This document shows positions 269-19,676 of a stretch of DNA of 64,000 nucleotides, piece after piece. The position numbers were made by a program, and so were the translations under genes. Within the stretch, counting starts at the first letter, position 1. Each line of letters begins with the position of its first letter. Origin of the DNA: Escherichia phage JLBYU28; sequence record OK272472.1, one strand, 5' to 3'. The notes beneath the pieces were generated by a model that worked only from the letters and a program-made list of their open reading frames with translations, was not told where the DNA came from and did not search any database.

Positions 269-1216
269 TTACATAGAGACTCTATCACGAATCTCAGCGA
301 TTTTTGCATCGTTCATTCGGGATTCACCTTTAATCTTAGTCCATCCAAGATACCCACACACCCTGTTAATCACAGAGATATCATATGAATGGCAAACCTC
401 ACACTCTTCCACATCAGCCTTTGGTCTGTTACCACAATGTTCACAGATTGCTAAGTCAAAGTTAAGTCCTTGATAGAAACCTTTCAACATACCTCTCGTA
501 ATACAACTCTTAAGTGCTGATAAGTTTTCTGGGTTAGCTACTCTTACATACTGGATTCTACCACCTCTACAGATATGGAAGAATGGCTCTTCTAAGTCCT
601 GCTTCTCAAATGGTGAGATGTCTGCTGCAACATTCATATGGAAACTGTTTGTAAAGTATTCCTTGTCAGAGACACCTTTAATAACGCCAAACATATCTCT
701 GAACTGTTTTAACTGAGTTCCACAAAGTGATTCTGCTGGAGTGCCATATACCGCATACAAGAAGCCATCTTCGTTCTTAAACTCTTCAGTTTTCATGTTG
801 ATGTATTCTAGAACATCGTATGCAAAACTACAGCTTCCAACTTCATGAAGTCGTTTACCTTCAGCAAGAACAGATAGCTCATCAAGCGCAGTAACCCCAA
901 AAGAAGCTGTGAAGGACTTCACGATATCCCAACCAACCCTGTCAGTAGGTTTCTTATTCCCTTTGTACAGACCACCTTGTGTAAATGCAAGAGGGTTAGA
1001 ACTTGCTGGCATATTAGCAATCATTTCGTAACGTTTCTTGTGGAAGCTGCGAATCATTTCTAAGTACTTATCAAGCTCTTTCCAGAAATCTAAGCCATTC
1101 TCTTTAGAATACTGGTAAATCATTGGTAAGTTCAAAGATACAGCACCAATGTTAGCACGACCTACATAAAACTCTTCACCATTCTCGTTATGATATGGTG
1201 ATAAGAACGCTCTACA
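269..1216 (-). CDS. nrdD: Anaerobic ribonucleoside-triphosphate reductase NrdD, exon 2 (C-terminal part incl. Zn ribbon and glycyl-radical region)
   Basis: Translation contains CRAFLSPYHNENGEE...GRANIGAVSLNLP, CEHCGNRPKADVEECEVCH and C-terminal RVCGYLG motif; frame stays open upstream of the track ORF to codon TGT at 1214-1216. Confidence 0.8.
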   Translation of the reverse strand, partial: CRAFLSPYHNENGEEFYVGRANIGAVSLNLPMIYQYSKENGLDFWKELDKYLEMIRSFHKKRYEMIANMPASSNPLAFTQGGLYKGNKKPTDRVGWDIVKSFTASFGVTALDELSVLAEGKRLHEVGSCSFAYDVLEYINMKTEEFKNEDGFLYAVYGTPAESLCGTQLKQFRDMFGVIKGVSDKEYFTNSFHMNVAADISPFEKQDLEEPFFHICRGGRIQYVRVANPENLSALKSCITRGMLKGFYQGLNFDLAICEHCGNRPKADVEECEVCHSYDISVINRVCGYLGWTKIKGESRMNDAKIAEIRDRVSM

Positions 1217-15851: not shown

Positions 15852-15910
15852 TTGCTTTTTATAATTTTTTGCAGTAATGTATGTGGTTAATGATTTTAGA
15901 GGGAGTAAAA

Positions 15911-18053
15911 ATGGAAAACGTAGATTTTAAAAACTTACATTTAGTTGGTGATACAGAAACTGATGGTTTACTCCTTGAGTTCACTAAAGTTCACGTAATG
16001 GCCTTTGCAGACTATAAATCTGACGATGAAGAGCCACCTGTATGGGTCTTTACAGATGAGCCTATCCTCGGTCACAAGTACACCAAGTACATTAAGGGTG
16101 GCTTACGTGAAGGTATTGAGTTTGCGTTAAAGGCAAAACGTCTTTGCATCCACAACGGTCTCGGTTATGACTGGTGGGTTTTCAATCACATTGCACCTGA
16201 TTTATGGAACTTTGATAATCCAAAGTGTAAACCGTGGAGTAATTTCTTTCAGGATTCTCTTATCCAGTCTCGTGTTCAGTGGATGGATAGACCAACTCCA
16301 AAGGGTTATAAAGGTGCTCATGGTTTGGCTGCATGGGGTGCTCGTGTTGGTGTTCGTAAACCAGAGATTGAACATTGGGGTGTATGGAATGCAGAAATCT
16401 TCACTCGTGTTGTAGAAGATATACGTATTAACGCCAAAACTAAACGTGCACTTGATAACGAGTATCTCAAGCTTAAGAAGTGTGGCATAGACACTTATGA
16501 AACCTACATGCGAGCTAAAGAGACATCTTTCTGGATGAGCCAGCAAGCTATTAATGGCTGGAAAGCTGATAAAGAGCTTATGGAGTTCCATGTAAAGGAA
16601 CTTGACAAGTTGACTAATGAGCTTGCTTCAGAGGTTGAACCACATCTACCTCCAACTATTAAGACCAAAGGTAAAGTCACTGGAGAAGAGTTTGCAAAAG
16701 CTTGGAATGAGTATGTTGAAACATTTGGTCATGCAGATGGACTGAAGAGGATTACCAAGTATCCTAAGACAAAGTATCGTCAACAGGTGCGTAACGGTGA
16801 GATGCAGACATACGAAATCAAGCCATTTGGTAAGCCAACTACAAAGATTTTTAACATTGAAAAGAGAAATTGCTATACACCAACCAACTCTGTAACTGGT
16901 GAAGAGTACAAGGAAGGTTTTGTAGCAATGAAGGATGCTCGTGCAATTTGCAATGAGTTGAATGCAAAGATTGGTAAGAAATGCAAAGACTGGAAGCCAG
17001 TAAAAACAGTCAAAACTGTGAAGTACTATAACAGCCACGTTGTTAACCACTTTGAACTTGAGTCAAGTCGCTACACAGGATTGATTGATGCACCATATAC
17101 ACCAATTGAGTTTGAAGTTTCTCGTATGACTCAGGTAGCAGTTGTAAAAGACTACTTGAAATCAGTTGGTTGGATTCCAGATGACTGGAACTACAAGAAA
17201 GACTCAGACGGTCGCCCTGTCAAAGTTTGTCGTTTCAAAGACAATAAAAAGATGATTACAAAACATCCTAAGTGGCAGGAGATGGTTGAGCGGTGTGGTT
17301 TGAGCTATGTTGAGCACGAAGGTGTACAGTATATCGAGCATAACTGGTCTGTGAAGAAGTACACAGATTTGCTTGAATCTTGCTTAATCCGTACTTCACC
17401 AAAACTTACTGAGTCATCTTATGATACGATTGAAGGTGAACTTGGACAGAAGATTGCAAAGTACTATACTTTGATGCACCGACGCAGAACTATTGAGAAC
17501 TCAAAGGATGATGAAAAAGGTTGGTTGAACCAGATTCGTCCTGATGGTCGCCTTAGTGCTGGTGCAATGGTGTTTGGTACTTCAACTGGACGTATGACAC
17601 AATATGGTATTGTAAACGTACCGTCTGGTGCTGCTGTCTATGGAGCACCTATGAGGGAGGTTTGGATTTGCGAGGAAGGGACTAATATCGTTTCAGTTGA
17701 CCAGAACTCTGCACAGCTTGTTTTACTGTGTAACTTTATGGGTGATAAAGAGTTCACTAAAGCGGTAACTGAAGGTAAAGAGTCAGTAGAATTTACCAAG
17801 CGAGAAGATGGGAGGTATTATTGCAAACATCTTGATAAGTACCTTAATCCAGAAACTGATAAGTATCTTCGTTATGATGCTGAGAATGACCTCTATGAAG
17901 TCTACACAGGGACTGATGCGCATACACTGAATAGTATTTACTTTGGTCTTAACAAAGAAGAGGATATTGTTCATTGCAGGGAGACACAGGATGAGGAACT
18001 TCTCCACGAGATTACAAAAGGTCGTAAGAAAGCCAAAAATGGCATTTATGCGT
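15911..18053 (+). CDS. DNA polymerase family A, exon 1 (3'-5' exonuclease and most of polymerase domain)
   Basis: RBS GAGGGAG before ATG 15911; Exo I motif HLVGDTETDGL; ends inside motif B (RKKAKNGIYA). Confidence 0.8.
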
Positions 18054-18321
18054 CAGTGGCGCATGTAAAACGTTGTGAATTGCTGGAAGCCTAAGTCTGT
18101 AAAGATATGGTAATCAGCAGCGAAGCCTCTTAAGAGGAACGTTCAGAGACTATCGAAAAGCATACTTAATGTATGAACTGAGTAGAGTAGGGTGGTAAGC
18201 TAATGACCATTCCCAAGTGCAACGGTAGTATTACTACTACGTGATATAGTCCGACACTCCGTAGAAATGCGGAGAAGTTCATAAGAGAACTGGTACACCT
18301 TGCGAGTGTATTGACCAGATG
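18054..18321 (+). ncRNA. Group I self-splicing intron in DNA polymerase gene (no internal ORF)
   Basis: R element GTTCAGAGACTATCG (18141-18155) and S element GATATAGTCCGAC (18243-18255) form the P7 pairing GACUA/UAGUC; exon 1 ends in U, intron ends in G; splicing gives IYALLFGAGDEK, matching T7 DNA polymerase motif B IYGFLYGAGDEK. Confidence 0.8.
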
Positions 18322-18878
18322 TATTGTTCGGTGCAGGTGATGAGAAGTTTGCCAAAACCATTAAGGCAGCTTCTACAGAAGAAGGTGCATTGACTAAGCA
18401 GACCTACTATATGCGTCTGCCAAAGATTAAGAAGTTACTTGATAGCTTAGAAGCCGATTTTAAGGCGTCTAAAAAGGCTCTGGAAGAGGTTTTTGGGAAG
18501 AATTCTTCAATTGCTAAAGGTGGTTATATCAGGGTTGCTGGAGCATGGATATGGTGCAAATCTCCACATAAACTACTGAACTACCTCCTGATGAGTTCGG
18601 AAGCACAGATTCAGAATGAGGCCATCAACCTAGCAGCAAGAAAAGCCTGTGAAGATGGCCTGACAAAACTGAATGCTCGAAAACCAGCTATCGGAGCAAG
18701 GTTACTTCTGGCATATCACGATGAAAATAGTTGGGAATGTCCAGAGGGTATGACACATGATATGAAAGCAATTGCTGACTGGATGTATGGACAAGCTTCA
18801 AAAAACTTAGGTTTGAGGAAAGAAACACTTGTAACTGGTACAGCAAAGGTTGGTAAGTCGTGGTATGAGGTACATTGA
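18322..18878 (+). CDS. DNA polymerase family A, exon 2 (rest of motif B, motif C and C-terminus)
   Basis: Begins LFGAGDEKFAK; contains motif C LLLAYHDENSWE. Confidence 0.8.
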
Positions 18879-18881
18879 TTA

Positions 18882-19415
18882 ATGGATTTTATTTCACAAA
18901 AACGTTTAAAGGAGCTACTACACTATGACCCCGAAACAGGGGTCTTTACTTGGCTTCGTAGAGAAGGTAAATCAAGAGCTGTTAGTGTTTTTAACAGTAA
19001 CTATGCAGGAAAGGTAGCAGGTAATGTTCAGACAGATTCAACTGGTCATAAACAGATTAGTATCTATTTTGACAAGAAAGCACATAAAGCACACAGACTC
19101 GCATGGCTTTATGTATATGGCAAGATGCCAAAAGGTATCATTGACCATATCAACGGAGACTCTCTTGACAACAGGATTGTAAACTTAAGGGAAGCAGATG
19201 ATTTTCAAAGTGCTTGGAATAAAGGTAAACCAGTCACCAATAAATCTGGGTACAAAGGTGTAAGTCTTAAGAAGAAGTCTGGTAAGTGGGTCGCACAGAT
19301 AAGTTATAAAGGTAAGAAGATGTTTTTAGGTCACCATGACACGCCTGAAGAAGCCCATAAAGATTACTGTGAAGCTGCTATGAAACTCCACGGAGAGTTT
19401 GCAAAACTAAGTTGA
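18882..19415 (+). CDS. HNH homing endonuclease with AP2-type DNA-binding domain
   Basis: HNH motif IDHINGDSLDNRIVNLR; AP2-like GYKGVSLKKKSGKWVAQISYKGKKMFLGHHDTPEEAHKDY; starts 4 nt after the polymerase stop. Confidence 0.7.
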   Translation: MDFISQKRLKELLHYDPETGVFTWLRREGKSRAVSVFNSNYAGKVAGNVQTDSTGHKQISIYFDKKAHKAHRLAWLYVYGKMPKGIIDHINGDSLDNRIVNLREADDFQSAWNKGKPVTNKSGYKGVSLKKKSGKWVAQISYKGKKMFLGHHDTPEEAHKDYCEAAMKLHGEFAKLS

Positions 19416-19422
19416 CAAGGTG
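19411..19422 (+). promoter_or_regulatory. TTGACAAGGTG promoter-like motif, plus orientation
   Basis: GTTGACAAGGTG upstream of the small-gene array starting 19467. Confidence 0.35.
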
Positions 19423-19466
19423 CTCAGGGAAGAGTACCTTATACTACATCTTGTATAGGAGGGCTT

Positions 19467-19676
19467 ATGAGCCACCGTGGAAGAACCCATGCAGCGATGA
19501 TGAAAGGTGCTTCAAAGGAAACTATCAAGAATCGTAAGCAGAAGTTGTTTGAGAGAATGAACAGGTTAATTGACAATTCATCTCTTTCAGGTTCTGAGAA
19601 GGTTTTCTTGAAAGGTAATCTGAAAAGTATTGCACAAGAACTTATTGACATTGAATATTGGAGACATCAAAAATGA
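19467..19676 (+). CDS. Hypothetical protein
   Basis: 69-aa ORF. Confidence 0.4.
   Translation: MSHRGRTHAAMMKGASKETIKNRKQKLFERMNRLIDNSSLSGSEKVFLKGNLKSIAQELIDIEYWRHQK

Follow-up and report, generated by a model that had tools for sequence, protein, structure and literature searches.

The gene for a family A DNA polymerase in Escherichia phage JLBYU28 (sequence record OK272472.1) is interrupted by 268 nucleotides (nt), positions 18054-18321 of the 64,000-nt stretch analyzed here (hereafter the window), and we conclude that this insert is very probably a group I intron of subgroup IA type (IA2-like) in the polymerase mRNA, descended from a mobile intron. Coordinates are positions in the window, and intron-relative positions are counted from the insertion site (- upstream, + downstream). 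The surrounding region (17400-19500) matched 259 phage records, nearly all of them Felix O1-like myoviruses (genus Felixounavirus) with Salmonella, E. coli, Shigella, and Citrobacter as hosts, and the top match was Phage NBSal004 at 97.3%. An initial annotation had called the element compact and without an open reading frame (ORF), an accurate description given the 6-8 stop codons in each of the three frames of the insert.

The group I intron model RF00028 was the sole Rfam family to match the insert, at 64.2 bits against a gathering score of 50 (E 5.7e-14), so that the Rfam scan proposed in the initial annotation came out positive. The match spans 17991-18274, with a 5' end too far upstream and a 3' end that stops at P9. 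The misplacement at the 5' end arose from fitting the P1/P2 section of the model to the exon, with non-canonical pairs and low posterior probability. The coordinates given earlier, 18054-18321, were correct and better than Rfam's own ends. We place the splice sites at 18053/18322 because of four independent lines of evidence: the reading frame, the alignment to T7 DNA polymerase, the intron-less relatives, and the pairing rules of the RNA.

The frame of exon 1 runs through ...GRKKAKNGIYA to 18052, leaving T18053 as base 1 of a split Leu codon, and the frame of exon 2 is open from 18322 (TA TTG TTC GGT GCA GGT GAT GAG AAG). The polymerase frame had been described as stopping after RKKAKNGIYA and resuming about 270 nt later with LFGAGDEKFAK, and both peptides were found where they had been placed, as were the U that ends exon 1 (U18053) and the G that ends the intron (G18321). 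The mechanical ORF list begins exon 2 at TTG 18324 (MFGAGDEKFAK) and includes exon 1 in an ORF at 15881-18094, the frame being open from 15881 and the start lying at ATG 15911 in GenBank relatives. Removal of 18054-18321 yields one in-frame ORF of 2730 nt and 909 codons (899 from the GenBank ATG), and the Pfam DNA_pol_A match to the spliced product runs to the C-terminus.

Joining 18053 to 18322 restores IYALLFGAGDEK. The junction region, GRKKAKNGIYALLFGAGDEKFAKTI, aligns without gaps to residues 517-541 of T7 DNA polymerase (TRDNAKTFIYGFLYGAGDEKIGQIV), and the alignment continues to residue 621. The T7 sequence given in the initial annotation, IYGFLYGAGDEK, was borne out, with the junction gapless against T7 R518-K536. 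The insertion point falls inside the Leu codon, behind its first base, where the intron separates the counterparts of T7 G527 and F528 and sits between the O-helix tyrosines Y526 and Y530 (T7 numbering) within motif B. From established motif B residue equivalences, we take this Leu to correspond to T7 F528 and to about L764 of E. coli Pol I. The spliced RNA is predicted to read UAUGCGU-UAUUGUUC at the junction and to encode NGIYALLFGAGDEK across it.

We compared 39 alleles of the locus (8 GenBank loci, 30 IMG/VR loci, and the window, with some phages present in both collections). In 28 of the 39 the intron is lacking, the sequence runs on unbroken precisely at 18053/18322, and the encoded peptide is IYALLF, or ICLLF at two distant loci. 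A junction slid one base either way would encode AVL or ASL rather than the conserved ALL. An artificially spliced 600-nt junction matched vB_EcoM_ULIM9 as a single piece at 94% identity, and the spliced junction was likewise matched as single pieces by HY02, Felix O1, and wV8. All 11 intron-bearing alleles have the flank TATGCGT/TATTG (a slash marks the insertion site here and below), while the flanks of intron-less alleles mostly use other synonymous codons, such as TATGCAC/TGCTG and TACGCCC/TGTTA. This shared flank indicates that the exon sequence required by P1 and P10 travels with the intron.

The insert folds into the helices listed in Table 1. P7 lies within the R and S elements and forms a pseudoknot with P3. 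The R element GTTCAGAGACTATCG and S element GATATAGTCCGAC named in the initial annotation lie at 18141-18155 and 18243-18255, and we verified the P7 pairing between them. P2 is absent, and P1 and P3 are joined by GUAAAA alone. Introns assigned to subgroup IA2, a class used for those of T4, PhiI/W31, and Pf-WMP3, carry two additional helices, P7.1 and P7.2, in the stretch that separates P7 from the 3' strand of P3, with a G-U-A linker (PMC3428280). A GUA is present here at 18187-18189, immediately 5' of P7.2, with 11 further nt between it and P7.1, and because of these extra nucleotides we describe the intron as IA2-like rather than as a tested member of IA2. The minimum-free-energy fold recovers P1, P3-P6, P7.1, P7.2, P8, and P9-P9.2, and P7 cannot appear in it.

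Table 1. Features of the interrupted polymerase locus and helices of the intron. Helices were drawn from the Rfam alignment, the minimum-free-energy fold, and inspection checked by script; a slash separates the two strands of a helix.
Feature	Position	Strand	Evidence	Remarks
DNA polymerase (family A) exon 1	15911-18053	+	ORF list; NBSal004 annotation; Pfam DNA_pol_A on spliced product	
Group I intron	18054-18321	+	RF00028; precise absence in 28 alleles; 80 standard pairs in 8 variants	268 nt; no ORF; no P2; terminal G18321
In-frame TAA	18092-18094	+	ORF list; frame analysis	13 codons into intron; terminates translation of unspliced mRNA
DNA polymerase exon 2	18322-18878	+	ORF list; Pfam; T7 alignment	Stop codon included; remainder of motif B and motif C
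Free-standing HNH_3 + AP2 endonuclease gene	18882-19415	+	Pfam	177 amino acids; 3 nt after polymerase stop codon
P1	18048-18053 / 18059-18064	+		Exon AUGCGU / guide GCGCAU; U18053-G18059 wobble at 5' splice site; 6 pairs, 8/8 sequences
P3	18071-18077 / 18218-18224	+		CGUUGUG / UGCAACG; encloses P4-P6, P7 5' strand, P7.1, P7.2
P4	18081-18086 / 18114-18119	+		
P5	18090-18091 / 18109-18110	+		
P5a	18095-18098 / 18103-18106	+		GUAA loop
P6	18120-18121 / 18141-18142	+		
P6a stub	18126-18129 / 18134-18137	+		CCUC / GAGG; UUAA loop; site of endonuclease ORF in relatives
P7 (guanosine-binding)	18148-18153 / 18246-18251, plus G18146-C18252	+		GACUAU / AUAGUC; A18147 bulged
P7.1	18161-18165 / 18171-18175	+		
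P7.2	18190-18196 / 18206-18209 + 18212-18214	+		UU bulge
P8	18225-18230 / 18235-18240	+		GUAGUA / UACUAC
P9	18257-18263 / 18268-18274	+		GAAA loop
P9.1	18276-18280 / 18287-18291	+		
P9.2	18292-18298 / 18306-18310 + 18315-18316	+		
P10	18054-18058 / 18322-18326	+		Intron CAGUG / exon 2 UAUUG; CAGUG directly 5' of P1 guide

For the formal pair count, we took eight variants from Felixounavirus, removing the P6a loop where it bears the ORF, which gave 80 pairs in 16 helices and 640 cells. Standard pairs occupied 640/640 cells, compared to 26-49% when partners were slid by 1-3 columns. All five variable pairs stayed paired, and two of them were altered on both sides; compensatory U-A to C-G changes occurred at the base of P6a in three sequences (columns 81/135) and in P8 in four of the eight variants. 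Outside the genus, the closest ribozyme that we found is an intron of Shigella phage Moonfish (Schitoviridae) that interrupts the RNA polymerase gene RNAP2; RF00028 matches it at 91 bits, and it is 72% identical to the window intron over 213 nt. The two share helices P3-P9 and the motif GAGUAGAGUAGG before P7.2, whereas the Moonfish intron, which belongs to a different gene and a different family of phages, forms a P2 hairpin and carries an HNH ORF 3' of P9. We compared them helix by helix, by hand and by script, the MAFFT alignment being wrong from P7.1 to P8. This comparison revealed 14 two-sided compensatory changes (3 in P3, 1 in P5, 1 in P5a, 6 in P8, and 3 in P9) with no disrupted pair in these five helices, and in P8 all 6/6 pairs were altered on both sides.

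The ribozyme was also better conserved than the coding sequence around it. Between the EC6-type and L016/VpaE1-type ORF-bearing lineages, the ribozyme is 97.2% identical, compared to 72% for the ORF region and 75-78% for the flanking 300 nt of each exon. This suggests that the RNA is under much stronger constraint, as expected of a working ribozyme.

By established group I chemistry, from which we predict both catalysis and splicing in infected cells, the intron would fold into P3-P9 and its guide GCGCAU would pair with the exon end AUGCGU to form P1. A guanosine bound at the G18148-C18251 pair of P7, beside the bulged A18147, would attack the phosphodiester after U18053. P10 (CAGUG/UAUUG) would then align exon 2, and the 3' OH of exon 1 would attack after G18321, joining the exons as ...IYA-L-LFGAGDEK.... 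We strongly infer that an active polymerase requires this splicing, because translation of unspliced mRNA ends at the intronic TAA, leaving out half of motif B and the whole of motif C, and exon 2 lacks start signals of its own, with no in-frame ATG within it and no Shine-Dalgarno sequence upstream of 18324. The GenBank relatives examined present the locus as two "DNA polymerase" coding sequences (CDSs) followed by an "HNH endonuclease," sometimes with a "hypothetical protein" over the intron; the real product is a single polymerase of 899-909 amino acids, not two genes. The window also contains an antisense ORF of 53 amino acids over the 3' part of the intron (18200-18361, minus strand), which is almost certainly spurious.

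Some group I introns require protein cofactors, and splicing here could depend on a phage or host helper protein rather than being autonomous. The intron is minimal, lacking P2 and keeping a 4-bp stub of P6a, and its catalysis is predicted from sequence. Still, we consider such a requirement very unlikely, given an intact core (P3-P9, the bulged A of P7 and the G-C pair that follows, the J8/7 region, GNRA loops on P5a and P9, and P7.1/P7.2) and the in vitro self-splicing of comparable ORF-bearing introns in the phage polymerases of PhiI, W31, Pf-WMP3, and SPO1 (PMC3428280). We give very little credence to a true split gene, in which two separately translated polypeptides assemble without splicing and the RNA between them is a dead relic. 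Two polymerase CDSs are indeed annotated in GenBank, TTG 18324 could in principle start translation, and ribonucleotide reductase genes in pieces through endonuclease insertion are known in T4-like phages, as cited in PMC3322345. However, the break falls inside the O-helix, between the Y526 and Y530 counterparts, and the downstream piece has neither an in-frame ATG nor a Shine-Dalgarno sequence. A relic would not keep 640/640 paired cells along with compensatory changes, nor remain 97% identical beside coding sequence at 72-78%, and the flanks are tuned to P1 and P10 in 11/11 intron-bearing alleles. Beyond the bare interruption of the gene, nothing favors an intein (ruled out by the 6-8 stop codons per frame), a group II intron (group I being the only Rfam family matched), a translational bypass (the 268-nt gap being, to our knowledge, far beyond any known bypass), or an assembly artefact (the same insert being present in ~96 independently sequenced phage records), and we reject all four.

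The group I intron was present, at ≥80% of its length, in those ~96 phage records, or ~40% of the Felixounavirus records found with polymerase probes. By state, the 39 loci comprised 28 intron-less, 4 with an ORF-less intron, and 7 with an ORF-bearing one. Three forms of the intron occur: the 268-nt form of the window, a long form of 780-805 nt, and a form of ~311 nt (Mushroom and S19cd). In the alignment, the long form differs solely by an insert in the P6a loop, which in VSe11, EC6, and others encodes a protein of 160-161 amino acids with a Recombination endonuclease VII domain (PF02945, E 6e-20). P6a in this form is a 15-bp stem, UCUCUGUUAGGACUC / GAGUUCCUAACAGAGA. The introns of EC6, JH2, FSL SP-010, VSe11, SPT-1, and VpaE1 share the site and flanks of the window's and, without the P6a loop, have ribozymes 97-99% identical to it; they differ in their length of 780-805 nt and in the Endonuclease_7 ORF in P6a.

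Some relatives carry this ORF in states of decay. In VpaE1, it is frameshifted, with a longest ORF of 101 amino acids and an annotation as two fragments, and Mushroom retains the P6a stem and a 43-nt remnant that holds the last codons of the ORF (RF00028 62.3 bits). In the window, P6a is reduced to a 4-bp stem whose basal C-G pair is compensatory, and everything else of the insert is gone; the window's copy contains no intron-encoded homing endonuclease, every frame being closed by the stop codons noted above. Because relatives carry an intact ORF, a frameshifted copy, and a 43-nt remnant, we conclude that the window intron is a deletion derivative. Its ancestor was a mobile intron in which the P6a loop encoded an Endonuclease VII-type (DHHRN) homing endonuclease. 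By a tblastn count, ~43 records carry the endonuclease ORF at ≥60% amino-acid identity, which suggests that the ORF-less state is the commoner one among intron carriers. RF00028 at its gathering threshold found no match in VSe11, a LUZ24-like phage, YpP-G, or MK, probably because of the long ORF insert, and this is not evidence against an intron in those phages.

Three records and two alleles stood out in these collections. "Campylobacter phage A132/A126" (MG065664, MG065668) is Felixounavirus sequence with an intron match of 100%, and "Staphylococcus phage SA1" (GU169904) also contains Felixounavirus sequence; all three are probably mislabelled or contaminated assemblies. Two IMG/VR contigs, L030 and L032, are intron-less and yet have the intron-type 5' flank TATGCGT/T, supplying the U of P1, where other intron-less alleles have GCAC or GCCC. 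These alleles may be products of precise intron loss, or they may be alleles that readily accept the intron.

The exon flanks of the window intron are mosaic. Most of the window's polymerase gene is nearest to that of intron-less ULIM9-like phages, at 92-100% identity in 50-nt bins, but identity to ULIM9 drops to 86% and 76% in the two bins that flank the insertion site. Between -22 and +115, the window and ULIM9 differ at 24 sites, and the window has the EC6/VSe11-type base at 23 of them; from -5 to +115, it does so at 22/22. Outside -22 to +115, the window equals ULIM9 at nearly all of the many positions at which EC6 differs. The 5' tract is shorter in NBSal004 (≤8 nt), and L011 (= BPS17W1) combines a short VpaE1-type 3' tract with a VpaE1-type P8. 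Homing introns are recognized by a patchy distribution among close relatives together with a mosaic flank tract, and we found both. EC6-type flanks inside a ULIM9-like gene, in tracts as expected of co-conversion, thus indicate past homing. As reconstructed from these tracts, the intron would have entered the window's polymerase lineage by homing-type gene conversion, bringing along ~22 nt of the upstream exon and 115-145 nt of the downstream one.

Several points weigh against a functional intron of formerly mobile ancestry. Because the Rfam ends are wrong, the splice sites rest on a hand-built model and comparative data. The minimum-free-energy stability of the intron is not significantly above that of shuffled sequence (z -1.48); a ribozyme with a pseudoknot would be expected to behave in this way, but the value lends the intron no support. 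The genus itself varies little (five variable pairs), and most of the covariation comes from one hand-aligned distant homologue. In the literature, we found no Felixounavirus with reported data from reverse transcription PCR, in vitro splicing, or transcriptomes. With regard to past movement, the co-conversion reading assumes that a ULIM9-like phage was the recipient and an EC6-like phage the donor, and general recombination in mosaic Felixounavirus genomes could also be the source of the flank pattern.

The free-standing HNH-AP2 endonuclease gene lies ~560 nt downstream of the ORF-less intron, and its product bears no relation to the Endo VII-type endonuclease that the intron encodes in relatives. 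Across the 39 loci, this slot is empty in 15, and the remainder have an allele from one of five or more classes (44-97% amino-acid identity to the window's). Free-standing homing endonuclease genes appear to favor it as a hot spot. The presence of an HNH gene showed no correlation with the presence of the intron in these loci. We rejected a link between HNH-AP2 and the intron because intron state did not predict whether the slot was empty or which class of allele it held.

Collaborative homing pairs an ORF-less intron with a free-standing endonuclease that cleaves the site where the intron inserts (PMC3984707). The known cases, T3 gene 5.3 with the PhiI intron and F-CphI with the psbA intron of S-PM2, resemble the window in that a free-standing endonuclease gene adjoins the interrupted gene, and trans-homing of the T4 nrdB intron by mobE is listed alongside them as a similar arrangement (PMC3984707, PMC2790892). 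Unlike the enzymes of those systems, the window's HNH-AP2 is a possible partner in mobility suggested by gene position, and its presence is not linked to that of the intron. We regard it as possible, though unlikely, that the ORF-less intron is still mobile in trans through mixed infection, with either the Endo VII-type enzyme of co-infecting relatives or HNH-AP2 as the cutter. The occurrence of the same 268-nt form in differing contexts (the window with its long EC6-type 3' tract, L011, and NBSal004) leaves room for such mobility.

Two types of intron-less site bear on this possibility. The wV8-type site reads ATCTATGCAC/TGCTGTTCGG, and the recoded "Felix O1-type" site reads ATCTACGCCC/TGTTATTTGG (over -8 to +19, ATCTACGCCC/TGTTATTTGGAGCCGGAGAC), with synonymous changes in 8 of 9 consecutive codons. 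Loci with the Felix O1-type site (L003, L004, L006, L010, L012, L034-L036, and L039) make up 9/17 of the HNH-positive intron-less loci and 0/11 of the HNH-negative ones. This association is not independent evidence because the nine loci belong to one polymerase lineage, and 8/9 recoded codons is not clearly above the background synonymous divergence (~60% of codons). The recoding could reflect target-site immunity or mere shared ancestry, and we draw no conclusion from it. If trans-mobility were true, the recoded site in HNH-carrying intron-less phages would be an immunity allele.

Group I introns are long familiar from the family A polymerase genes of phages. Described ones lie, in Pol I numbering, at position 674 (SPO1, SP82, Bastille, and Pf-WMP3), 676 (phiL7), or 881 (PhiI/W31) (PMC3428280), and the window's site (~764, motif B) differs from all three. 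The introns of SPO1, SP82, Bastille, Pf-WMP3, and phiL7 further differ from the window's in their HNH nicking endonucleases, although that of Pf-WMP3 resembles it in having no P2 (PMC3428280). As summarized in PMC3428280, the introns of the T7-like coliphages PhiI and W31 are like the window's in belonging to a family A polymerase of enterobacterial phages and in having P7.1/P7.2 and, in the mobile form, an ORF in P6a. According to the same source, which draws on Bonocora and Shub 2004, they differ in their site (881, motif C) and their HNH-type endonuclease, I-TslI, and their splicing was shown experimentally, whereas splicing of the window intron is predicted by us from sequence features.

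Polymerase genes whose group I intron encodes an Endo VII-type endonuclease also occur in LUZ24-like Pseudomonas phages, Yersinia phages Berlin and YpP-G, and Pseudomonas phage MK; in the LUZ24-like phages, YpP-G, and MK, we saw the ORF between two polymerase pieces. These polymerases, like the window's, are split in the codons of motif B (R..AK..[IF]Y), with exon 1 ending in ...RDDAKTFI (LUZ24-like), ...RDNAKTF (YpP-G), or ...RSPAKNVKYG (MK), and their endonucleases are 43-52% identical to the Felixounavirus one. As P1 would place it, the insertion point relative to the window intron's lies at about -6 nt in Pseudomonas phage WS1160 (L067, LUZ24-like), at about -10 nt in YpP-G (L068), and at about 0 nt in MK (L069). 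MK also has a P1 of AUGGGU/GCCCAU, GUAAAAC after the guide, and the same codon phase, and its intron appears to occupy the window's insertion site with a related ribozyme. Unlike the window's, the LUZ24-like, YpP-G, and MK introns contain an ORF, which in MK appears to sit in a different intron loop. Motif B thus looks like a recurrent target of the Endo VII-type endonuclease family. We also noted an endonuclease-like or unnamed ORF between gene pieces in cr3_1 (L070, crAss-like), Fpv2 (L071, Flavobacterium), and SP-15 (L074, Bacillus), and we list Escherichia phage 19-1-2 (L073) alongside them.

Parts of this system have appeared in print. The Endo VII-motif proteins of JH2, EC6, and FSL SP-010 were described as "intron-encoded" (Fang et al. 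2018, PMC6083498), and the SPJ41 paper reported "two introns" from a non-coding RNA scan (PMC9951933); the SPJ41 polymerase intron is 98.1% identical to the window's. The VSe11 announcement described two polymerase genes parted by an endonuclease VII CDS without using the term intron (PMC5968733). The Felix O1 genome paper reported no introns in Felix O1 (PMC3185647), in agreement with its contiguous polymerase allele. In the Felixounavirus literature, we found no splicing experiment, structure model, or mapping of the insertion site. The intron is therefore a typical phage group I intron, detectable by standard tools and already mentioned in print, but poorly characterised and mis-annotated. 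What this analysis adds is the position of the boundaries to the base, a map of all the helices, the series of alleles that record loss of the ORF, the co-conversion tract, and motif B as a hot spot of insertion.

These results leave the general picture of group I introns as it was. The motif B site at ~764 extends the 2012 list of insertion sites in the polymerase (674, 676, and 881), and correct gene models matter because several Felix O1-like phages are candidates for biocontrol of Salmonella and E. coli. At this one site, the genus shows stages of a homing cycle: empty, intron with endonuclease, decaying endonuclease, ORF-less intron, and empty with intron-type flanks.

A second group I intron lies at 1136-1529 on the minus strand of the window (Rfam match 1266-1616, RF00028 53.9 bits), where it splits nrdD, the anaerobic ribonucleotide reductase gene, into ORFs at 1530-2729 and 269-1135 (minus strand). 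In relatives, this site is empty, holds an ORF-less intron (~316 nt, e.g. EC6), or holds one with an "HNH homing endonuclease" ORF (~426 nt more; BPS17W1 and FSL SP-010). The states of the polymerase and nrdD introns are unlinked, as EC6 has an ORF in the polymerase intron only and BPS17W1 shows the reverse. Together, the polymerase allele series, the nrdD intron, and the variable endonuclease slot make the genus a natural setting well suited to the study of intron mobility and of competition between phages; recent work in PhiPA3 showed such competition to be mediated by an intron endonuclease (PMC11620839). Elsewhere in the window, Rfam identified 21 clustered transfer RNA (tRNA) genes at ~49287-54034 on the minus strand, as expected for Felix O1-like phages. 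For Felix O1 itself, 22 tRNAs have been reported.

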